37,619 nucleotides of DNA from a virus. A program made the position numbers and the translations under genes. The DNA lies in the IMG/VR virus record IMGVR_UViG_3300036715_000355, positions 1 through 37,619 of that record. One strand, given 5' to 3'. The notes under the pieces were generated by a model. It was not told the DNA's origin and did not search any database. It saw only the letters and a program-made list of their open reading frames with translations. Below, in pieces: positions 7,896-32,845 of this stretch (position 1 is its first letter; each line of letters opens with the position of its first letter).

Positions 7896-10118
7896 ATGGA
7901 CTATTCGCAGTTCCTAGACGGGAAGGCGATCCGCGCCATTCCTACAGGCATCCCAGCGCCAGGGCCAGTGCCTCCCATGTTATTCCCATTCCAGGCCGAT
8001 ATCGCCCGATGGGCGATCAAGCGTGGCCGTGCCGCCATCTTCGCAGACTGTGGGATGGGCAAGACACCGATGCAGCTTGCATGGGCTAATCAGATCCCAG
8101 GCAAGGTGCTAATTCTGGCTCCGCTTGCCGTAGCCCAGCAGACAGTGCGTGAAGGTAAGAAGTTCGGGACTGATCTGACCTATTCACGGTCTGCGTGTGA
8201 CGCACGGATCACCATCACTAATTACGAGATGCTGGACCACTTCAATGCTCATGACTACACTGGCATCGTCCTGGATGAGTCCAGCATCCTGAAGTCCTAC
8301 GATGGCAAGTTCCGTCAGCAGATCATTGAGTCGTTCAAAGACACGCCATTCAAACTGGCCTGCACCGCTACACCTGCCCCAAACGACCACATGGAGCTTG
8401 GGAACCATGCTGAGTTCCTGGGTGTTCTGACCCGCACCGAGATGCTTTCGACCTTCTTTGTGCATGACGGTGGCGACACGGCCAAGTGGCGCATCAAGGG
8501 CCATGCTGAGGATGACTTCTGGAAGTGGCTGGCTTCATGGGCTGTGATGATCCGCAAGCCTTCGGACCTTGGCTATGAGGATGGCAACTTCATCATTCCA
8601 GAACTGATCATGCACCCTCACATCGTGCAGGCTGAACACACCCCAGAGGGGCTTTTGTTCGCTCTGGAAGCCACCACACTCCAGGAACGCCAGCAGGCCC
8701 GCAAGATCACCACGCCGGAGCGTGTGGCCCGTGTTGCGGAGATTGTGGCCACGAAGCCCGATGAACCTTGGCTGATCTTCTGCAACCTGAACACTGAATC
8801 TGAATCTGCGGCATCGGCCATTCCCGGCGCTGTGGAGATTACCGGCTCCGATTCCATGGAAGTTAAGGAATCCAGGATGCTCGGGTTCCAGGATGGATCG
8901 CATCGGGTGGTGGTTTCCAAAGCGTCGATCTGTGGATTTGGGATGAATTTCCAACACTGTCCCAATGTGGTTTTTCTCGGCCTCTCCGACTCATACGAGC
9001 AGTTCTACCAGGCGATCCGCAGGTGCTGGCGTTTTGGGCAGACCAAGCCCGTCCACTGCCATGTCGTGACCTCTGACCTTGAGGGCGCTGTGGTTTCCAA
9101 CATCGAACGCAAAGAGGATGATGCCCAGCGCATGGCCGAAGGGATGGTTTCTCACATGCACCAATTCAATGAGCAGGACATTCGCGGCACAGTCCAAACC
9201 CACGACACTTATCGGACCAATCATGCCTCTGGTAAGGGTTGGGATATGCACCTTGGGGATTGCGTTGATGTGGTCAGCCAGATCCCATCTGACTCCATCG
9301 GCTATTCGATATTCTCCCCTCCGTTCGCAAGCCTCTACACCTACTCCGCATCGGACCGGGACATGGGGAACTGCCGGGATGCTGATGCTTTCTATAAGCA
9401 CTTCCGGTTCCTGACGAAAGAACTGCACCGGGTCATGATGCCGGGTCGGAATCTGAGCTTCCATGTGATGAACCTGCCCTTTTCCAAAGAGCGTGATGGG
9501 TTCATTGGCATCCGGGACTTCCGGGGCGATCTGATCCGCATGTTCCAGGATGAGGGATTCATCTTCCATTCTGAGGTTTGCATCTGGAAGGATCCAGTCA
9601 CGGCGATGCAGCGGACCAAGGCTATTGGCCTTCTGCACAAGCAGATCAAAAAGGACTCGACCATCTCTCGCCAGGGCATCCCTGACTACCTTGTGACGAT
9701 GCGGAAGCGCGGGGCCAACCCTGAGCCTGTGACCCACACTGACGAGACGTTCCCAGTCCAGATGTGGCAGAAGTATGCCAGCCCTGTTTGGATGGATATT
9801 AACCCTTCTGACACTCTCCAACGAGAATCTGCTAGGGAAGAGAAGGACGAGCGCCATATCTGCCCTTTACAGCTTCAAGTGATCCAGCGGGGCCTCGATC
9901 TGTGGTCTAACCCAGGCGATCTGGTTCTCTCCCCATTCGGCGGGATCGCTTCTGAGGGTTTCATGGCAGTGAAGATGGGCCGTAGGTTCGTTGGTGCTGA
10001 GTTGAAGGAATCTTACTGGAAGCAGGGGTGCCGGAACCTAAAGGCGGCTGAGACTGCCAACGAGGGCGGGTTATTCGACCACCACGACTCTTGTGTAACC
10101 CTTGACACAGACCACTAA
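7896..10118 (+). CDS. SNF2/DEAD-like helicase fused to an N6-adenine/N4-cytosine DNA methyltransferase (beta-class order)
   Basis: Helicase motifs: CGMGKT, VLDESS, CTATPAPN, QAIRRCWRFGQ. Methyltransferase motifs: SIFSPPF (motif IV) then DLVLSPFGGIASEG (motif I). Confidence 0.85.
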   Translation: MDYSQFLDGKAIRAIPTGIPAPGPVPPMLFPFQADIARWAIKRGRAAIFADCGMGKTPMQLAWANQIPGKVLILAPLAVAQQTVREGKKFGTDLTYSRSACDARITITNYEMLDHFNAHDYTGIVLDESSILKSYDGKFRQQIIESFKDTPFKLACTATPAPNDHMELGNHAEFLGVLTRTEMLSTFFVHDGGDTAKWRIKGHAEDDFWKWLASWAVMIRKPSDLGYEDGNFIIPELIMHPHIVQAEHTPEGLLFALEATTLQERQQARKITTPERVARVAEIVATKPDEPWLIFCNLNTESESAASAIPGAVEITGSDSMEVKESRMLGFQDGSHRVVVSKASICGFGMNFQHCPNVVFLGLSDSYEQFYQAIRRCWRFGQTKPVHCHVVTSDLEGAVVSNIERKEDDAQRMAEGMVSHMHQFNEQDIRGTVQTHDTYRTNHASGKGWDMHLGDCVDVVSQIPSDSIGYSIFSPPFASLYTYSASDRDMGNCRDADAFYKHFRFLTKELHRVMMPGRNLSFHVMNLPFSKERDGFIGIRDFRGDLIRMFQDEGFIFHSEVCIWKDPVTAMQRTKAIGLLHKQIKKDSTISRQGIPDYLVTMRKRGANPEPVTHTDETFPVQMWQKYASPVWMDINPSDTLQRESAREEKDERHICPLQLQVIQRGLDLWSNPGDLVLSPFGGIASEGFMAVKMGRRFVGAELKESYWKQGCRNLKAAETANEGGLFDHHDSCVTLDTDH

Positions 10119-24666: not shown

Positions 24667-24950
24667 TGAAGAAGATCGTTGATCCTAAACACTTCGCGAC
24701 CGTGTGCGGGGCTCTCACTGTTTCGGGCTCCAAGACCGCCATCAAGATTATGGATGAGAAAACCATCGTCAAGGCTACTTGGCGTAATAAGCCAAGCGGG
24801 CGTAACTCGCGGGAAGAGATGGTTGTGACCTACGGGGCACCGGACTATCGGACCCTCGTCTTCATCAAGAAATGCAAGAAAGCCGGTGAGCCATTCCCTA
24901 TCAAGAAGGTTCAGTTCAGGGCATGGCCGGTCAAGAAGGCGAATAAGTAA
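24666..24950 (+). CDS. Hypothetical protein (94 aa)
   Basis: ORF taken from the track, with TAATG coupling. Confidence 0.55.
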   Translation: MKKIVDPKHFATVCGALTVSGSKTAIKIMDEKTIVKATWRNKPSGRNSREEMVVTYGAPDYRTLVFIKKCKKAGEPFPIKKVQFRAWPVKKANK

Positions 24951-26389
24951 TGAGAATCCGGGGGGCCGTTGGACCCGCCTACGCCCTTTCTACGGTCCCA
25001 CTGGACTGCCAGCAGACTATTAACCTGTTTTTAGAGCCTGATGAACTTCAGACAGGCAAGGATGGGTCTATCGGTGCTTTGGTCTGTCGCCCAGATCTGA
25101 CGACCTTCTGCACTCTGCCCATCGCACCGGTTCGGGGCATGTGGCGGGTGTCTGTGAGTGGCCGGGTCTTCGCAGCGGGCGGGAACGCTCTCTATGAGAT
25201 CACCTCTGCCGGTGCGGTAACGAAGATCGGGTATCTAAAGACTGATACCGGGTCTGTCTCAATGAGCGACAATGGCCTCCAGTTGATCGTGGTGGATGGA
25301 GCGGCGGGTTACATCCTGACATTCTCCAACGGCATCTTTGCGCCCATCACTTCCCCGGCGTTCTACAGCTCGAACAAGGTTGTCTTCACCGACACATATT
25401 TCGTGCTAGTTCGTCCCAATTCTGACCAGATTTACCAGTCAGACTCATACGATGGGTTTACCTACGGGGCTCTTGACTTTACCACGGCTGACGCGAACCC
25501 AGATAAGACCGTCACATCTGTCCGGTATCGTAACCAGTTGGCAGTCTTTGGTGAACGGTCTACAGCCTTTTATCAGGACGCTGGAAGCAAAAACTTCGCA
25601 TTTGATAGGATTAACGGTTCTTTAATTGAACATGGATGCGCTGCCCCCTTGTCACCGGCCAAAGATGGCGATACACTGGTATGGCTGGGAGAAGATGAGT
25701 ATGGGAATGGCGTGGTCTACAAAACAGTAGGCTATCAGGCTTCCAGGGCTTCAAACTATGGAGTCGAGCTTGCCATCCAGGGATATGGAGACATCTCCAA
25801 CGCCACGGGTTTCATGTTCCAGACTCGCGGGCATACCTTCTACGTGTTGAGCTTCCCGAGTGCTAATACATCCTGGGTGATGGATGTTGGCTTGGGAACC
25901 TGGTATGAATGGAAATCGACCAAAGCAGACGGTTCCCAAGGCCCATGGCGTGCTTGGCAGCATGTATGGGCTTTCGGTAAACATCTAGTGGGAGACTTTG
26001 AGAATGGCAAAATCTATTCTCTCGGCTTCTCCAGTAGGACTGATGACGGGGCTGTCATCCAGAGACGGCGAAGGCTACCCCCTGTATCGAACAACCTCAA
26101 GCGGCTCATCCATTCCAAGTTTCAGTTGGATTGCCGAACCGGGGTCGGGACAGACGGAACCAATCAAGGCCAGCAACCTACCGTGATGCTTCGCTACTCG
26201 GATGATGGTGGGCAGTCTTGGTCCTCTGAGAAGTGGGCTCAACTTGGGCGCATTGGGCAGACCCAGGCACGTGCTATCTGGAGGATGTTGGGTCAGAGCC
26301 GGAACCGGGTCTATGAGGTCACAGTAACCGATCCTGTTGACGTAGCGATCATGGGGGCCGATCTTGACGCGACCCCGTGTGCCTCATGA
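24950..26389 (+). CDS. P22 gp10-like packaged-DNA stabilisation / tail hub protein
   Basis: 479 aa. N-terminal ...QQTINLFLEP...RGMW...GGNALYEI...MSDNGLQLIVVDGAAGYI pattern. Confidence 0.65.
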   Translation: MRIRGAVGPAYALSTVPLDCQQTINLFLEPDELQTGKDGSIGALVCRPDLTTFCTLPIAPVRGMWRVSVSGRVFAAGGNALYEITSAGAVTKIGYLKTDTGSVSMSDNGLQLIVVDGAAGYILTFSNGIFAPITSPAFYSSNKVVFTDTYFVLVRPNSDQIYQSDSYDGFTYGALDFTTADANPDKTVTSVRYRNQLAVFGERSTAFYQDAGSKNFAFDRINGSLIEHGCAAPLSPAKDGDTLVWLGEDEYGNGVVYKTVGYQASRASNYGVELAIQGYGDISNATGFMFQTRGHTFYVLSFPSANTSWVMDVGLGTWYEWKSTKADGSQGPWRAWQHVWAFGKHLVGDFENGKIYSLGFSSRTDDGAVIQRRRRLPPVSNNLKRLIHSKFQLDCRTGVGTDGTNQGQQPTVMLRYSDDGGQSWSSEKWAQLGRIGQTQARAIWRMLGQSRNRVYEVTVTDPVDVAIMGADLDATPCAS

Positions 26390-27195
26390 GCATTCAAAAC
26401 GCTCCCATCCGTGAGCCCATCCAGCCCATGCCGCCGGTATGGTCGATCTGGTTCCAAAACCTTGTAACGGCATTCAACGCACTCTTGGCGTCTGCTGGGG
26501 TCATCAATATGCCTGCGTCCCGTATCCCTTTCGGCAATGCAGGTGGGACTGGGGTTGATTCGTCGGCTGCGCTAACGTTCGACGGGACCAAACTGGACAG
26601 CCCACAGGCTAGGTTCGGGACTGATACTGATTACACAGAGATCGAGGCAGACGGGACTATCCGCATGGTTGGAGCTGCTAGTGTCTGGAACGACATCAAC
26701 ATTAGCCTTGTGCCCCCGCAGGGTGGTGCATCTGCCCCGGCCATTATCGCGTTCAACGGGGATTCTAATCTCGATTGCTATGCGTATTCGGGGACCAACC
26801 CAACCCCGGACGAGATCCACTCAAGCCTAGAGATCCTGCATGGCTACAAAGAGGGGTCAGACCTGCACTTCCATGTCCATGCCTACCCAACCAACGCTAA
26901 CACTGGCGATGTGAAGTTGAGCCTACGTTACACATGGTTCAACCGTGGCACCGTCCCAGCAGCGGCTGTGACTGTCCCTATGGTGCTCCCAATGCCTGGC
27001 GTGGCGTGGCAGGAAACAACGTTCGCATCTGTCCTAAGCGGGGCAGGTAAGAACATGGGCTCCCGCTTCGTCTATTCGGTGTTCCGAGACACTACCGATG
27101 TCCAGGACACCTACGCAAGCAACCTAGCAGTAACAGATATGGGGCTGCATTACGAGATTGATCAGATCGGGTCTAGGGAGATTTTTGTAAAATGA
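26386..27195 (+). CDS. Virion/tail structural protein, unknown role
   Basis: ATGA overlap at 26386. Beta-rich. Lies within the tail module. Confidence 0.5.
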   Translation: MSIQNAPIREPIQPMPPVWSIWFQNLVTAFNALLASAGVINMPASRIPFGNAGGTGVDSSAALTFDGTKLDSPQARFGTDTDYTEIEADGTIRMVGAASVWNDINISLVPPQGGASAPAIIAFNGDSNLDCYAYSGTNPTPDEIHSSLEILHGYKEGSDLHFHVHAYPTNANTGDVKLSLRYTWFNRGTVPAAAVTVPMVLPMPGVAWQETTFASVLSGAGKNMGSRFVYSVFRDTTDVQDTYASNLAVTDMGLHYEIDQIGSREIFVK

Positions 27196-27998
27196 ACTTC
27201 CAGGTTGAATACCGCGCTCCGATGCCGTTGGATATCCCGGGGCTTGAGTCTACCATGCTCAAGATGCCGCAAGAGCCCGCCCCAGTTGTGCATCGGTTTG
27301 GGCCTGGGATTTATATCCGTGAGGTTCGTCTCCCCGCTGGTTCTTTCGTGATTGGTCACGAGCAATTAACAGAGCATCTGAACATCATGCTAACTGGCAA
27401 AGTATTGATGGCTGATGGATCGGTCCTGGAGGCCCCTACAATGTTCGTCGGGAGACCTGGCAAAAAGGCCGGGTTCATCGAAGAGGATTGTGTGTGGCTG
27501 AATGTCTACGCTACCGAAGAAACAGATGTAGACAAACTTGAATCCATGTTTCTGCGCAAGTCCGAGGCATTCATGGCTCACCGTGGCGCTATGGATGAAC
27601 CCGCAGCACGCGAAGACTTCGCCAAGATGTTAGATGATCTTGGAGTGAGCGCCGAAACTGTAGCCTTCCAATCCGAGAATGAATCAGATCAAATTGCAAT
27701 GCCTTACGGTGCATATAAGTTCCAGCTTGGACCGTCGCCCATCCACGGTAAAGGTATCTTTTCTTGTGGAGGATATGAAGCGGGCGAAGTCATCGGAGAA
27801 GCCCGCATCAATGGCATGAGGACACCTCTCGGGTGCTATACCAATCATTCTGGGACTCCTAACGCGAAGATGGATCGCCGGGGGCAAGACATCTATCTAG
27901 TGGCGTCTCGGCCAATCACGAGCCAACATGGCGGATGGCTGGGTGAAGAGATCACAGTAGATTACCGAGTTTCAGTGGAGGTCACATGTCAGGCGTAG
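27192..27998 (+). CDS. Cupin-like N-terminal domain fused to a C-terminal SET-domain (protein lysine methyltransferase-like)
   Basis: SET signatures: SPIHGKGIFS, YTNHSGTPNA (compare NHSCxPN) and GEEITVDY (compare GEELxxDY). N-terminal HRFGPGIYIREVRLPAGSFVIGHEQ..H..ML.G is cupin-like. Confidence 0.7.
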   Translation: MNFQVEYRAPMPLDIPGLESTMLKMPQEPAPVVHRFGPGIYIREVRLPAGSFVIGHEQLTEHLNIMLTGKVLMADGSVLEAPTMFVGRPGKKAGFIEEDCVWLNVYATEETDVDKLESMFLRKSEAFMAHRGAMDEPAAREDFAKMLDDLGVSAETVAFQSENESDQIAMPYGAYKFQLGPSPIHGKGIFSCGGYEAGEVIGEARINGMRTPLGCYTNHSGTPNAKMDRRGQDIYLVASRPITSQHGGWLGEEITVDYRVSVEVTCQA

Positions 27999-28750
27999 CA
28001 ACTGCAATAGCAGTGGGAAGCATCGGTGGGGCATTGATTAGTTCTAATGCTTCAAGCCAGGCGGCTAAGGGAGCCGCGAATGCCGCTAACCAGGCCAATG
28101 CCACTCAATGGGGCATGTATGACCAGAATCGGACAGACCAGGCACCTTGGCGCGAAGCTGGGGGGATGGCACTTGGCCAGATGCAGGCAGGGATGCAGCC
28201 GGGAGGCGAGTTTAATCGCACTTTCGGAATGGGCGACTACCAGGCAGACCCCGGCTATCAGTTCCGGCTGGATCAGGGTAACAAGGCACTCCAGAGGGCC
28301 GGGGCGAAGTTCGGTAACAGCCTGAGCGGTGCCCAGCTTCAGGGCGCTTCAGACTACAACCAGGGCATGGCATCCCAGGAATACGGGAACGCTTACAACC
28401 GGTTCATGAACAACAGGACCACGCGGTTTGGTGAACTGTCGAACATGGCGGGGCTGGGCCAGTCGTCCGTAGGGGCCACAGGGCAGGCGGGACAGAATGT
28501 GGCCAATCAGGTAGGCAATAACACTATGGGCGCTGCTACGGTAGCAGGCAACGCTGGGATGGCCAACGCTGGGAACTGGAGTAACGCCATGAACAACGGA
28601 ATCAACCAGTGGCAGAACTACAGCCAGATGCAGAACATGAGCAACGCTGGCAACTTCAGCATCACCGGGACACCTGGGTCTTCATCTCCCAACTTCGGGA
28701 ATAACTGGGGCCAGACTGTTGCGACTGTCCCTGTGAACTACGGGGGTTAG
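27986..28750 (+). CDS. Internal virion / ejection protein (G/N/Q/A-rich)
   Basis: Hydrophobic N-terminus and a DPGYQFRLDQGNKALQR motif, which is common in podovirus internal proteins. Confidence 0.55.
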   Translation: MSGVATAIAVGSIGGALISSNASSQAAKGAANAANQANATQWGMYDQNRTDQAPWREAGGMALGQMQAGMQPGGEFNRTFGMGDYQADPGYQFRLDQGNKALQRAGAKFGNSLSGAQLQGASDYNQGMASQEYGNAYNRFMNNRTTRFGELSNMAGLGQSSVGATGQAGQNVANQVGNNTMGAATVAGNAGMANAGNWSNAMNNGINQWQNYSQMQNMSNAGNFSITGTPGSSSPNFGNNWGQTVATVPVNYGG

Positions 28751-28751
28751 G

Positions 28752-30284
28752 ATGCCTTTCGAGGGAATGAACTTCGGTCTAGCGCGGCCTACCGTCCAGG
28801 TTGAAAATCCTATGGATGTGGCGATGAAGGGCCTGGCCATGCGAAGTCAGATGCAACAGCAAGCTATCCAACAGCAAGGTATGCAGGATGCCCAGGACTT
28901 CCGTAACCAATACGGGATGAGCCCCGGCATGGCGAAGAATGTTAAGGACCTCCAGACCGCAGGCTACCAGGCGGAACACGCTAAGTCGCTAGCCCTAAAC
29001 GAACACACTAAGGCTGTCGATTGGCTGGTAACCCAGCAGAACAAGACGTATCAGTCGGCCCTGGACGCATTGAACAAGGACCCTAACGCGGCCCCCGGTA
29101 TCCATTCGTTTGTTCTCCAGAAGACTGCCCAGAATGCCCAGCAGATCGGGGTTGATTCATCCAAGAGTGATGACCCCCTTAACTTCGTCACCACAGCGGC
29201 CCCATTCGCCCCTGGCGAGGCTGAAAAATGGGATGTGGAAGCCCAGAAGTCTTGGCTTGAGCAGAAGGTCAAGGATACGACCCCCGAGGCCGTGGCTCAG
29301 AAACGGGCAGAACTGGCGCTCCAACAGCAGAAGGCGGACCAAGACGTATGGGAGAAGACGCCCACTAGGGATGGGTTCGCTCGGTTCAACAAGAAAACTG
29401 GAGTGATGGAAGCGGTAGACGGTGGATTTAAGCCGCCCATCACTGCCGCCCAGATCAACCTAGGCACCGGGCAGGCACACAACACTGGAACAGGGGTTGA
29501 TACATCTAAGCCACTTGCCAACCCACAAGCTGAGGGTCTAGCCCGTGATTTTGCCGATGGCAAACCACAGCCTGCCATCACATCTCGCACCCCTGCGTGG
29601 GTCAGTGACGCTATCGCCCGTGGCCGCCAAATCTACGCACAGGCTAATGGAGGCGATGAACAAGGGTATGGGACGACCTCAGGGGTCATTAAGAAGTCCC
29701 GCGAAGCTTGGGCGCCGGGCGGCGCGATGATGAACACGGCTGCGGCTGTTGACGTTGCTACGGGGCATCTAGCCGCCAGAGATCAATTCATTGAGGCGCT
29801 AAAGAATGGTGATGCGGCCAAGATGAATGACCTTAAAAACTACTTCAAGACCCAGTTCAATCTTAGCACTGCCCCGAATGACCTTCGGACTATCAATGGG
29901 CTTGTTGCACCTGAGATCGCAAAGGTGGTCAAAGGTTCAACCAATACGAACGAATCTGAAGTTCAGGATATCCGAAAATCCCTTGGCGATGACCTAGCAT
30001 CAGAGATTCAGAAAAGCGGGGGGCAGGTATTCCGTGGGGCGATGGGAACCAGGCTTGAGAACATGGAGAACCAATACAAGGTTGCCTACCCAGGCAAGAG
30101 TCTTTCCCGTGTGCTTCTACCCGCTACGGTTAAGACTTTCCCATCAGTATTTGGTAATGGTGCCCAAGGTGGCGCGGGTGCTACACCTGCACCCGCTCAA
30201 CGTATCACCGCAACGCAAGCTAATGGAACGAAACTTCAACTTTCAGCCGACGGGAAATCATGGGAACCAATGGGGGGTAAGTAA
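28752..30284 (+). CDS. Internal virion / ejection protein
   Basis: Size, position and Q/A-rich helical composition. No enzymatic motif seen. Confidence 0.45.
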   Translation: MPFEGMNFGLARPTVQVENPMDVAMKGLAMRSQMQQQAIQQQGMQDAQDFRNQYGMSPGMAKNVKDLQTAGYQAEHAKSLALNEHTKAVDWLVTQQNKTYQSALDALNKDPNAAPGIHSFVLQKTAQNAQQIGVDSSKSDDPLNFVTTAAPFAPGEAEKWDVEAQKSWLEQKVKDTTPEAVAQKRAELALQQQKADQDVWEKTPTRDGFARFNKKTGVMEAVDGGFKPPITAAQINLGTGQAHNTGTGVDTSKPLANPQAEGLARDFADGKPQPAITSRTPAWVSDAIARGRQIYAQANGGDEQGYGTTSGVIKKSREAWAPGGAMMNTAAAVDVATGHLAARDQFIEALKNGDAAKMNDLKNYFKTQFNLSTAPNDLRTINGLVAPEIAKVVKGSTNTNESEVQDIRKSLGDDLASEIQKSGGQVFRGAMGTRLENMENQYKVAYPGKSLSRVLLPATVKTFPSVFGNGAQGGAGATPAPAQRITATQANGTKLQLSADGKSWEPMGGK

Positions 30285-32845
30285 TGCCTGAACTTCCGCC
30301 CCTCCCGAAAGGCGCAAGCCTTGATGCCCCGTTACCTAGCGGTGCGACATTAGATAGTCTGCCGCCCCTTCCTAATGGTGCAAAGCTAGATCAAGCTCCT
30401 TCCGATAACTTCCAGCCCACTCAATACGGGTTCGGCATTAAGACTATTGACCTCGGGCATGGGAAACAGTCAGTTCAACGCAGCGGGGATGCCGGGGTCT
30501 ACTTTGGACCCGACCAAGGTAACACCGGGAAACCGGGGTGGTTTGACGCTAAGGGCAACCGTTTGGGCGATACCCCCGGCGCTGACCCTGGATTTGTAGA
30601 CCGGCAAATCAACGCAGACCAGCAGCGCAGGGCGCACCCGGTCCAGAGCCTTATCTCTGGTATTGGCAACCTTGGTATCGGTGTTAGCCCTGGCGGGTTG
30701 GTCCAGAACATCCGGGAGATTACTGGAAACACTACTCCGTATGCGGTTGAGAAGTATCTACCAGCGCCCAACGTGGCGGGGGTCGGGAAGGGCCTGACTG
30801 ATACGGTGCTGGCACCTGCTCAACTTGTGGCTCATGCCGTTGGTTCTAATGCGGTTGATCCCGCAGTAAACGCGGTTGATAACTATTACAAGGGGAACTT
30901 CAACGAAAGCAAGACAGGCGAAGCCATTGGTCAGGCTCTTCCGTTCCTGGCCACGGCTGGAGGCTCATCGGCTGCACAGGCCCCCGCACAGGTTCTCACC
31001 ACGGCTCAGAAGGTCAAGGCGGCTTTGTTTGGTATCGCTAAGGCTTCTGCTACTGGGGCTGTTGCGGCCCCTGTCATGACCCCGGAAACCAATGTCCAGG
31101 GCGAAGGCGACTATTGGAATCGGAAACGAGCAGAGTCCAAGACCGGGGCCAAGGTTGGCGGGGCTTTGGGAACCGTTGGGCAAGGTTTAAGTGCATGGGC
31201 ATCTCGTTCCACAACCCCAGCGGCTGAAGTGGCAGCAGAGATTACTCCAGAGATTACTCCAGAGGTTGTGGGGAAGACAGCTCGGAAGGCATCGGGGAAA
31301 GGATTAGGGGCGTCACAGGCCAAGACAGAACTAGCGCAGATGGCAGAATTCAATCCAGAAGCCAAGGCACAGGCAGATAGACTTGGGATGGAACTTCCGG
31401 CCGATGTCCTTTCTGACAACCCGCAGGTTCGGTCTGCGGCAGGCCTAACCCGGTCTGTTGCCGGTAGCCAACCTGAGGCCGGGTGGAGAACTACAGTTTC
31501 AAATGCCGCAGATCAAGCCGACAAGATCATGGCCGAGAATGACGCCCATTTCGCGGCAGGAACCACCAGCCCTGGCTCGGTTTCTGCAAAGGTTAACAAA
31601 GCCTTGATTAGTGAACGGGATGCCATCGCTAAACAGGCTAATGATGCCTACGGTGCGGTGAATGATTCGGTCCCAAAAGAAACCCCGGTCCAGATGGATC
31701 GGCTTGGGGCGACCTTGGCAGATGTCGAACGTGAGGTTGGCCCCGGTGGGATGTCTAAGCAGGAAAGCAGATTGATTTCCATGCTGGGAGACAAAGACAA
31801 CCCCCCCACCTATGGACGACTCATCCGAGAAAAGAATCTCATCGGACAGGCTATCGGAGGCCAGAAGTCACCTTACGGCGATATGGAAACTGGAGCATTG
31901 AAACGGCTCTATGGTGCGTTGTCGGAAGACCAACTTGCTAATGTTGGTGACATTGCTGGGTCAGAGATGAGGTCTCAACTACACGGGGCCAACCTGCTGT
32001 TCGCAAAACAGAAGGGTCTAGAATCACGGATTACGGGTGCATTTGGTAATACGATGGATGGGTCTATCGCTGGTCAGATGCGGAACGCCATCACGCAGAG
32101 TGCCAAGGGTGACACCAAGGCTTTCAATAGTCTAATCAAGACGGTGCCTGGGGATCTGCACAAGGAAACTCTCATCACGGCTCTTGCCGATGCCACTAGG
32201 TCTAATCGTGGCGTTGATCAGGGAGGGTTTGGGTTTAGTGAGTTCGCTAAGACTTGGCGGGGCATCCAGGCTAACCCTGTGGTCTATGACAAGATGAACA
32301 GGACGCTTGGCCCTGAAACCGTGGCGATGCTTAATGACCTTCAGGGTATCTCACAACGGCTAACAGAATCTAGAGCCAATGTTCTGACCACAGGGAAGGC
32401 GAACCAAGCTCTCGTTAACACGATGGCAAAACAGACCACGTTTGAAAACCTAATGGACTCTACGGTCAGCAAGACCGCATCAACCGCTGCTGGAGCTGCT
32501 GGAGGTGGCCCGGTGGGGGCTGCCGCTACAAGCCTTCTACATCAAGCATTGAGCAAAGGTGGCAGACAGCCTCTCCGTGATATTGGGAACCTGTTCAACT
32601 CCCCAGAATTCCTAAAGTTGGTTGAAGACGTTTCAAGTGGTGCCAAACCTTCAGGTGCAACTGTTGAGGCTGTAGTTTTGAGCCCACGGTTCCAAAACTT
32701 CGTTTCTCACGTTAAGGATATGCCAAAAGGTGTATCGAATCGCGCTACCTGGCTTATGTCACGGATCGCGGCAGACCGTGCTACCCCCAAAATGCCTACC
32801 GCAGCCTCAACCGGAACCAATGACCAGATAGCGGAGAACAAATGA
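30284..32845 (+). CDS. Large internal virion / ejection protein
   Basis: 853 aa. TAATG coupling. Position equivalent to P22 gp16/gp20-type proteins. No lysozyme or transglycosylase motif recognised. Confidence 0.45.
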   Translation: MPELPPLPKGASLDAPLPSGATLDSLPPLPNGAKLDQAPSDNFQPTQYGFGIKTIDLGHGKQSVQRSGDAGVYFGPDQGNTGKPGWFDAKGNRLGDTPGADPGFVDRQINADQQRRAHPVQSLISGIGNLGIGVSPGGLVQNIREITGNTTPYAVEKYLPAPNVAGVGKGLTDTVLAPAQLVAHAVGSNAVDPAVNAVDNYYKGNFNESKTGEAIGQALPFLATAGGSSAAQAPAQVLTTAQKVKAALFGIAKASATGAVAAPVMTPETNVQGEGDYWNRKRAESKTGAKVGGALGTVGQGLSAWASRSTTPAAEVAAEITPEITPEVVGKTARKASGKGLGASQAKTELAQMAEFNPEAKAQADRLGMELPADVLSDNPQVRSAAGLTRSVAGSQPEAGWRTTVSNAADQADKIMAENDAHFAAGTTSPGSVSAKVNKALISERDAIAKQANDAYGAVNDSVPKETPVQMDRLGATLADVEREVGPGGMSKQESRLISMLGDKDNPPTYGRLIREKNLIGQAIGGQKSPYGDMETGALKRLYGALSEDQLANVGDIAGSEMRSQLHGANLLFAKQKGLESRITGAFGNTMDGSIAGQMRNAITQSAKGDTKAFNSLIKTVPGDLHKETLITALADATRSNRGVDQGGFGFSEFAKTWRGIQANPVVYDKMNRTLGPETVAMLNDLQGISQRLTESRANVLTTGKANQALVNTMAKQTTFENLMDSTVSKTASTAAGAAGGGPVGAAATSLLHQALSKGGRQPLRDIGNLFNSPEFLKLVEDVSSGAKPSGATVEAVVLSPRFQNFVSHVKDMPKGVSNRATWLMSRIAADRATPKMPTAASTGTNDQIAENK

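Follow-up and report, generated by a model that had tools for sequence, protein, structure and literature searches.

What a SET domain does in the ejection gene block of a bacterial virus, and what the cupin joined to it contributes, are the questions raised by one gene of the IMG/VR virus record IMGVR_UViG_3300036715_000355. The whole stretch of DNA analysed here, positions 1 to 37,619 of that record (37,619 nucleotides; hereafter the window), is by gene content the ∼37.6 kb genome of a P22-like/lambdoid podophage. The gene in question encodes a protein with a cupin-fold β-barrel in its N-terminal half and a small SET domain with a strongly conserved active site in its C-terminal half, and it overlaps the genes on both sides. 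Comparison with its relatives reveals the SET half to be an optional cassette on a cupin that is otherwise common as a stand-alone protein directly 5' of podophage ejection genes, and on balance we consider it probable that the gene product is an active methyltransferase cassette carried by an ejection-module adaptor.

27192 to 27998, plus strand: cupin-SET gene, ATG start, 268 amino acids plus stop; full-length match to phrog_34170 (E = 4.6e-74) and 1367 homologs

A model of the protein was built with AlphaFold (AF2) from a 42-sequence alignment, with a predicted local distance difference test score (pLDDT) of 91.8 and a predicted template-modelling score (pTM) of 0.86. A search of this model against the PDB with Foldseek gave two independent sets of matches at a probability of 1.00, to cupins for the N-terminal half and to SET domains for the C-terminal half. 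The latter include vSET (PDB code 3kma; template-modelling score of 0.64 normalised to vSET, r.m.s. deviation of 3.4 Å), MLL1, EZH2 and SETD8. At the level of the single sequence the signal is faint: the Pfam SET model (PF00856) matches with E = 5.8e-4 and 20.7 bits against a cutoff of 22.4, spanning only the C-terminal half of the model, and a phmmer search of the PDB gave only weak matches (E of ∼0.5–1). Matches to PF00856 are precomputed for many homologs, with relatives scoring 22.6–41.6 bits, and a profile built on the SET part only retrieved MLL1 (E = 5e-8), vSET (8e-7) and EZH2 (3e-5). Profile and structure searches thus both recover the SET domain that the original prediction had read from the motifs GKGIFS (residues 186–191), NHSGTPNA (218–225) and GEEITVDY (251–258), all of which are in place. 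The profile aligns with MLL1 in register over the three signature regions (SPIxGxGxF with SPIHGRGLF, RYTNHSxxPN with RFINHSCEPN and GEEITxDY with GEELTYDY), so that Tyr258 falls on the catalytic tyrosine; the alignment to vSET stops at chain residue 105, opposite Tyr258. The core and its motifs, the glycine motif being that for binding of S-adenosylmethionine (SAM), lie as follows.

27714 to 27977, plus strand: minimal SET core, residues ∼175–262, without SET-I insert and without Cys-rich post-SET; Foldseek matches to vSET, MLL1 and EZH2
27735 to 27761, plus strand: SPIHGKGIF, GxG SAM-binding motif (Gly186, Gly188), aligned to MLL1 SPIHGRGLF
27837 to 27866, plus strand: YTNHSGTPNA, NHS motif (Asn218, His219) with Gly at the canonical Cys, aligned to MLL1 RFINHSCEPN
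27942 to 27965, plus strand: GEEITVDY, catalytic-tyrosine motif (Tyr258), aligned to MLL1 GEELTYDY

Conservation was counted over 151 cluster representatives extending down to ∼37% identity. Gly188 is kept in 150 of them, Asn218 in 144, His219 in 143 and Tyr258 in 143, and Glu253 in 145 of 150; the SAM-binding and catalytic residues are therefore 94–99% conserved, which argues for a working active site. The cysteine of the canonical NHSC motif is replaced by glycine or other residues in the family. Around the conserved core the domain is unusually bare. The phage SET has nothing equivalent to the SET-I insert, some 35 residues that separate the GxG strand from the NHS motif in MLL1, and the core is followed by no cysteine cluster, only by a short C-terminal helix (residues 258–267 in the AF2 model). 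With both SET-I and post-SET missing, the domain could be active only if the linker or the cupin made up for them. The high pTM suggests packing of the helical linker and the cupin against the SET core, and together they may supply the absent wall of the substrate groove.

A search of GenBank for SET domains in other phage protein contexts gave significant matches only in the six cupin-SET phages. A 414-residue protein on a 2 kb contig from ENA (P0015) has, besides the normal cupin-SET region, an extra SET match near its N-terminus (residues 85–133, 41.6 bits), which may reflect a duplication, tandem or partial, or else an artefact of assembly.

The N-terminal half, for which a cupin β-barrel had been proposed from the sequence, matched small cupins in the Foldseek search (PDB code 4e2g with a template-modelling score of 0.57, ectoine synthase, TM1459, KdgF and RmlC-like cupins), in agreement with that proposal. 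It is joined to the SET core through a series of helices.

27273 to 27521, plus strand: cupin-fold β-barrel, residues ∼28–110, from AF2 strands, Foldseek and residue statistics
27528 to 27674, plus strand: helical linker, residues ∼113–161, with AF2 helices at 113–120, 125–129, 137–150 and 154–161

The spacing of cupin motif 1 is exactly canonical (G50-x5-H56-x-Q58-x3-H62-x6-G69), but the ligand residues differ from the canonical G(x)5HxH(x)3-4E(x)6G. Position 58 is Gln or His in the fusions (His in 72 of 148), and position 56, that of the first histidine, is Ala, Lys or Arg in 112 of 116 stand-alone cupins. Motif 2, G(x)5PxG(x)2H(x)3N, has no canonical form in the window protein; Glu98, Trp102 and Asn104 sit on the equivalent strand. 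No Pfam cupin model matches the protein. Across the family His34, Tyr41, Arg43, His62, Lys92 and Trp102 are conserved, Glu98 less so, and among the 116 stand-alone cupins His34, Arg43, His58, His62 and Lys92 are conserved. An impression gained with six sequences, that the cupin lacks a conserved polar site, is ruled out by these 116. A ligand or metal pocket is possible. Positions 56, 58 and 104 differ between fused and stand-alone cupins; co-variation with the presence of SET was considered and rejected, as the fusions of the phiAp1-like clade keep the stand-alone signature, so that the difference reflects phylogeny rather than function.

The relationship between the two halves becomes clear from the relatives. 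The N-terminal domain of the window protein matches phrog_12032 and phrog_24280 (E = 5.7e-24 and 7.8e-21) and, by tblastn, dozens of podophage genomes. A hidden Markov model of the cupin matches all 390 of the 390 proteins collected, and a profile of the stand-alone form matches at least 3064 proteins, the best 120 of which comprise only cupins alone (133–222 residues) and cupin-SET proteins (277–296 residues). Judged by these sequences the cupin is no peculiarity of the window protein: stand-alone proteins in the same slot form a much larger family, of which it is the conserved core. In a clade resembling phages phiAp1 and RSK1, sampled at 80 IMG/VR loci, 64 loci carry the stand-alone form and 16 the form with SET, and the cupins of these fusions are 79–93% identical to a stand-alone protein; both forms are present in at least three cupin clades. 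The pair that best locates the junction consists of a 170-residue protein without SET (P0277) and a 294-residue protein with SET (P0278), encoded at syntenic loci where the gp4 homologs are 64%, the gp10 homologs 75%, the cupins 81% and the gp7 homologs 69% identical. The two diverge in the middle of the linker, near window residue 140, where P0277 ends and P0278 runs on into two helices and the SET core; the second half of the linker is by this criterion part of the cassette.

27609 to 27995, plus strand: optional SET cassette, residues ∼140–268, two helices plus SET core, delimited by the P0277/P0278 alignment and synteny and by 16 SET-bearing against 64 SET-less loci

The presence and absence of SET among such close relatives indicates that it has been gained or lost repeatedly and is dispensable for the core function of the cupin. 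Base composition was tried as an indicator of recent acquisition and proved uninformative, the cassette (GC content of 0.52, and 0.50 at third codon positions) lying inside the range of the neighbouring genes. At the two loci just compared (L163 and L167) the second ejection protein is just 32% identical and different genes lie between gp10 and the cupin, an example of how sharply the mosaic breaks around the cupin/gp7 pair.

A stand-alone cupin of ∼150–220 residues is encoded directly 5' of the 'DNA ejection' gene in RSK1, Vibrio 234P9, VvAW1 and Amaethon, and in phiAp1, a phiKMV-like member of the Autographiviridae, the cupin gene has tail tubular protein B on one side and the internal virion proteins on the other, an arrangement that corresponds to the slot of T7 gene 13. 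The gp7-like gene starts within ±30 nucleotides in 58 of 78 loci of the phiAp1/RSK1-like, mostly SET-less cupin clade. Named members of the stand-alone family are RSK1 gp13 (L004, 6785–7453), phiAp1 gp43 (L087, 3953–4405), VvAW1 gp04 (L088, 3941–4435) and Bbp23 of BPP-1. Their current labels are 'short tail fiber protein' (phrog_12032) and 'tail fiber adhesin' (phrog_24280), other records calling them RmlC-like jelly-rolls. No experimental basis was found for the tail-fibre label of this family: in the source paper of one such label it stems from a low-confidence structure prediction with no proteomics, and both names appear to rest on prediction only. The cupin/RmlC-like fold and the fixed place 5' of ejection genes render the label doubtful, and suggest that thousands of 'short tail fiber' annotations are probably wrong.

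Two single cases depart from the usual arrangement. In BPP-1 the gene for the Bbp23 cupin overlaps by four nucleotides a gene for a GNAT N-acetyltransferase (bbp24-bbp23; L090, 5483–6402; Pfam score of 30.1 bits against a cutoff of 20.7), GNAT enzymes being the second amine-modifying family to occur in association with the cupin; here the cupin gene lies between the terminase and a portal-sized gene, away from the ejection genes. On a contig of a Gallionella sp. metagenome-assembled genome (MAG; JBAZVL010000017, L111, 5953–7548) a 531-residue cupin-SET protein has an extra C-terminal domain of ∼255 residues with a weak, sub-threshold match to Glyco_trans_1_2, and is followed, with a four-nucleotide overlap, by open reading frames (ORFs) of 210, 417 and 632 residues, an ejection-sized triplet. 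The extra 255 residues were considered as a read-through fusion to the ejection protein, which was rejected: they are not gp7-like, and give the weak glycosyltransferase-like match instead.

The fusion itself is widespread. In a set of 5.8 billion proteins, 1367 match at E ≤ 1e-3; after clustering at 50% identity there are 3403 clusters at E ≤ 1e-3 and at least 229 at E ≤ 1e-30, the best 150 being nearly all full length. That more than 1300 homologous proteins exist indicates that cupin-SET is a real, selected gene. It is present at no fewer than 418 IMG/VR loci and has a PHROG of its own, phrog_34170, with function listed as unknown; NCBIfam gives no match for the protein. Cultured or deposited phages with the fusion are Rhodoferax phage P26218 (gp30), Pseudoalteromonas phage PH1 (gp49), phage zth2-2 and Manatee Spring metagenomic phages, and the annotation of one GenBank record of the fusion already notes a likeness to the PBCV-1 H3K27 methyltransferase. 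Integrated copies are found in Cupriavidus sp. H19C3 (a complete chromosome), C. phytorum, Paraburkholderia, Burkholderia and an Oxalobacteraceae isolate, from which it follows that at least some carriers are temperate and that the hosts are mainly Burkholderiales. The original prediction had held a SET domain fused to a cupin in a phage structural operon not to be a standard module. This holds to the extent that no functional study of any phage SET protein was found in the literature, coverage of which is incomplete; as a statement about occurrence it does not survive the cluster and locus counts, the dedicated PHROG or the vSET-like label in GenBank.

Oxalobacteraceae bacterium GrIS 1.11 has three cupin-SET copies on separate contigs (L102, L104 and L110), which suggests several related prophages. 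A scan of GTDB (L092–L113) returned several cupin-SET contigs of ∼34–57 kb binned to MAGs of Bathyarchaeota, Saccharibacteria, Anaerolineae, Lentisphaera and Bacillota; contigs with such implausible hosts are probably mis-binned free phage contigs.

The genomic setting supports a connection with DNA ejection. Upstream of the cupin-SET gene the window encodes portal, scaffold, major capsid, gp4-like and gp10-like proteins, and downstream follow three proteins of 254, 510 and 853 residues, in the same order of sizes as the P22 gp7/gp20/gp16 triplet (tabulated in PMC8954989). The placement between a tail-type gene and ejection genes had been part of the original prediction and is borne out by the β-sandwich, tailspike- or fibre-like model of the gene product upstream and by the match of the gene downstream to phrog_598.

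24950 to 26389, plus strand: P22 gp10-like tail hub / 'head closure Hc3', phrog_578 (E = 5e-106), start of the conserved block
26386 to 27195, plus strand: variable upstream gene in the slot of P22 gp26 (tail needle), no PHROG or Pfam match, AF2 pLDDT of 81
27175 to 27180, plus strand: Shine-Dalgarno-like AGGGAG, 11 nucleotides 5' of the cupin-SET ATG
27977 to 27981, plus strand: GGAGG Shine-Dalgarno of the next gene, within the cupin-SET coding sequence, 4 nucleotides 5' of the ATG at 27986
27986 to 28750, plus strand: gp7-like first ejection protein, 254 residues, Lys-poor and rich in Gly, Asn, Gln and Ala, phrog_598 'DNA ejection' (E = 4e-34), 13-nucleotide overlap with the cupin-SET gene
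28752 to 30284, plus strand: second ejection-size protein, 510 residues, gp20 position, assigned by position and size only, no family matches
30284 to 32845, plus strand: third ejection-size protein, 853 residues, gp16 position, assigned by position and size only, phrog_6704 of unknown function

The cupin-SET ATG at 27192 shares the tetranucleotide ATGA (27192–27195) with the TGA stop of the upstream ORF, and the ATG of the next gene, at 27986, lies 13 nucleotides inside the cupin-SET ORF, whose TAG stop occupies 27996–27998. The translational coupling on both sides that had been proposed from these overlaps stands, and the tight downstream junction recurs in the family. In a synteny sample of 80 IMG/VR loci with the fusion, the next gene starts between −25 and +4 nucleotides from the cupin-SET stop in 72 of 76 loci, the commonest junctions being −4 (28 loci), −13 as in the window (15), +1 (11) and 0 (8). 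A gp7-like gene was detected directly downstream in at least 43 of the 80 loci. A gp10-like gene lies upstream in 63, with a variable region between in which the neighbour of the cupin-SET gene ranges from 65 to 557 residues. Homologs of the window-type second and third ejection proteins were found in only one and five of the 80 loci, respectively. Across loci the cupin-SET proteins are ∼50% identical, against 20–40% for the gp10-like proteins, 25–37% for the major capsid proteins and 26–50% for the gp7-like proteins, and this better conservation suggests a substrate that is itself more conserved than those neighbours.

The upstream gene probably begins at the ATG at 26386, in an ATGA overlap with the stop of the gp10-like gene. 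The model of its product has an N-terminal helix and a β-sandwich resembling a carbohydrate-binding module, with Foldseek matches to such modules and to distal domains of tailspikes and fibres. It has 49 homologs in all and is present in one of the 80 loci; the slot is hypervariable, and the product probably forms a tail needle or fibre knob. Homology to P22 gp26 was considered and dropped, there being no sequence similarity.

From the folds, the conserved motifs, the synteny and coupling, the modularity and the placement in the late operon we infer a catalytic activity, an adaptor role and a substrate for the protein. The cupin module (residues ∼1–139), whose gene is translationally coupled to, and lies directly 5' of, the first ejection or internal-virion gene in P22-like, RSK1-like and phiKMV-like podophages, would bind or escort ejection proteins or the assembling particle, and the SET module (residues ∼140–268) would be a SAM-dependent protein lysine methyltransferase positioned by the cupin. 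The protein might be co-packaged with the ejection proteins and delivered to the next host, where it would methylate a conserved host protein, the use to which PBCV-1 puts the vSET in its virion (PMC7019647). The simplest substrate, the coupled gp7-like protein, was examined in an alignment of 66 gp7-like proteins from SET-bearing and six from SET-less phages. The gp7-like proteins (L006–L085) contain 0–6% lysine, with a median of about 2%, are rich in Gly, Asn, Gln, Ala and Ser, and are conserved mostly at Gly, Ala and Pro; no alignment column reaches 50% lysine and one protein is lysine-free, so that an obligatory gp7 substrate is rejected. Together with the divergence of the other ejection proteins and the optional nature of SET, the missing gp7 lysine tilts the balance slightly towards a conserved host target.

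Several points weigh against this interpretation. By itself the window protein falls under the Pfam gathering score, and it lacks post-SET as well as SET-I, the usual source of one wall of the substrate groove. A folded β-barrel/SET protein would need unfolding to pass the tail channel. The literature searched yielded no biochemical or proteomic evidence of any family member being present in virions or active, and profile comparison gave no homology of the cupin to P22 gp14 or T7 gp13. In BPP-1 the cupin gene does not adjoin the ejection genes. The argument from conservation is also weak, as enzymes generally outconserve structural proteins.

Whether the enzyme would act before or after leaving the producer cell is the main division among the explanations, and the original prediction had likewise offered either packaging and injection or methylation of virion lysines in the course of assembly. 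One tentative possibility is that cupin-SET is an internal virion protein, ejected with the gp7/gp20/gp16-like proteins, that methylates host proteins early for takeover or anti-defence. The packaging of vSET in the PBCV-1 virion is a precedent, and T7 gene 13, the positional analogue, is annotated as coding for an internal virion protein; in relatives, internal virion proteins encoded nearby have enzymatic domains (according to the annotations of phiAp1 gp45 and gp46), SET is optional and swappable in the manner of accessory conflict domains, and the protein outconserves the phage structural proteins. Yet the compact β-rich fold would need to unfold for ejection, no virion proteomics was found in the literature for any member of the cupin family, histones are absent from the bacterial hosts, in which no target suggests itself, and there is no PADLOC or anti-defence signal. 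Nearly as likely, and also to be held loosely, is modification during assembly, in which cupin-SET remains in the producer cell or serves transiently in assembly, holding an ejection or virion protein of the phage through the cupin while SET methylates the lysines of that protein before or during packaging; such methylation could protect from proteases or host sensors, or tune release. A late structural operon coupled to ejection genes suits this well, SAM is present in the cytoplasm of the producer cell, no translocation through the tail is needed, and the fusion of an enzyme to a substrate-binding adaptor would be a common design. The absence of a conserved gp7 lysine tells against it, as do the other two ejection proteins, which are too divergent for a conserved site, and the close relatives that manage without SET. 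A version with a conserved virion protein (portal, hub or capsid) as the target is nearly as likely as the conserved host target.

The remaining explanations concern the nature of the modules. That the cupin is a carrier entering the capsid with the ejection proteins, its C-terminus a swappable dock for protein-modifying enzymes, and that the injected SET methylates a conserved bacterial protein within seconds, is a rather doubtful extension; it draws on the SET domain here, SET with a glycosyltransferase-like domain in the Gallionella relative and the GNAT next door in BPP-1. It seems unlikely that the protein is bifunctional, with the cupin itself a metal-dependent enzyme (such as an oxygenase or isomerase that shares its substrate with SET). 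The canonical spacing of motif 1, the histidine at position 58 in about half of the fusions, the conservation of His34, Arg43, His62, Lys92 and Glu98 in stand-alone and fused forms and the metal-binding cupins TM1459, KdgF and ectoine synthase among the Foldseek neighbours are in its favour, but position 56 is Ala, Lys or Arg in nearly all stand-alone proteins, canonical motif 2 and a Pfam cupin match are absent, and the class-specific residues track clade rather than SET presence. A pseudo-enzyme, in which SET is a structural or binding module kept for assembly, would explain the missing SET-I and post-SET, the NHSG in place of NHSC and the score under the Pfam threshold; it is improbable, given that the GxG, Asn-His, Glu and Tyr positions are conserved in the pattern of an active site rather than of a scaffold and that vSET, likewise devoid of post-SET, is active. 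Our preference stays with an active methyltransferase cassette on an ejection-module adaptor.

Protein lysine methylation has hardly been explored in phage biology, and the large, conserved cupin-SET family places an apparently active SET domain in the ejection module of podophages infecting Burkholderiales and other Proteobacteria. The SET and cupin folds are well known, and the fusion was already in the databases, unannotated save for the one record noting a resemblance to vSET; what is new is the minimal SET domain without SET-I, its optional presence, as a cassette, on a cupin that is ubiquitous in ejection modules, the apparent mis-annotation of that cupin and the failure of the simplest substrate hypothesis. 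If the protein is injected, it would be a prokaryotic parallel of vSET and an effector of a new kind, serving early host takeover or anti-defence; should the cupin act as a carrier, it would be a bacterial-virus counterpart of the chlorovirus enzyme and a new class of injected post-translational effector; and if virion proteins are modified, methylation would add a new layer to virion maturation. A SET core smaller than vSET and without SET-I also bears on how small a catalytic SET unit can be. Cultured carriers (P26218 with gp30, PH1 with gp49, and the Cupriavidus and Paraburkholderia prophages) make the question directly testable.

The window also has genes for O-like and DnaC-like replication proteins, NinB, TerL, portal, scaffold, major capsid, a gp4-like adaptor, the gp10-like hub and a tailspike. 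At 7896–10118 it encodes a 740-residue protein with a helicase-type N-terminal part (phrog_16, phrog_62) and a DNA-methyltransferase-like C-terminal part (phrog_67, phrog_498), which may be a helicase–methyltransferase fusion of the replication module.

Among known systems, the best structural match of the C-terminal half is vSET (PBCV-1 A612L), an H3K27 methyltransferase that is packaged in the virion, is called the smallest histone methyltransferase in a review on chloroviruses and is active without post-SET (PMC7019647). The two are virus-encoded, share near-identical NHSxxPNA and GEEITxxY motifs and have no pre- or post-SET zinc clusters. However, vSET is free-standing, with 119 residues and a retained SET-I region, whereas the phage core has ∼85 residues, with a helical linker joining it to a cupin; and the host of the cupin-SET phage is a bacterium, which has no histones. 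In MLL1/KMT2A, EZH2 and small bacterial SET proteins the GxG, NHS and ExxxxDY motifs align in register with the phage domain, but the cellular domains have a SET-I ∼35 residues longer than the phage loop, the NHSC form of the motif and a Cys-rich post-SET, none of which the phage domain has. The bacterial proteins (∼160–175 residues; loci L119–L162) retain SET-I, NHSC and a WPCxCGxxxCxG post-SET, and their match to the phage SET profile is confined to its C-terminal half. The stand-alone phage cupins are homologous to the N-terminal module, occupy the same slot (BPP-1 excepted) and share His34, Tyr41, Arg43, His62, Lys92 and Trp102 with it, but have no SET cassette. P22 gp14 and T7 gp13 have the same relative position in the late operon as the cupin; hhalign comparison of the cupin with them gave probabilities below 1%, so the correspondence is positional only, and no ejection-protein PHROG matches the cupin-SET protein. 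Virion-delivered enzymes are familiar in phages from the ADP-ribosyltransferase Alt of T4, DarB of P1 and the transglycosylase domain of T7 gp16. With these, cupin-SET would share the concept of an injected catalytic domain on an internal virion protein; the chemistry differs, that predicted here being the methylation of lysine.

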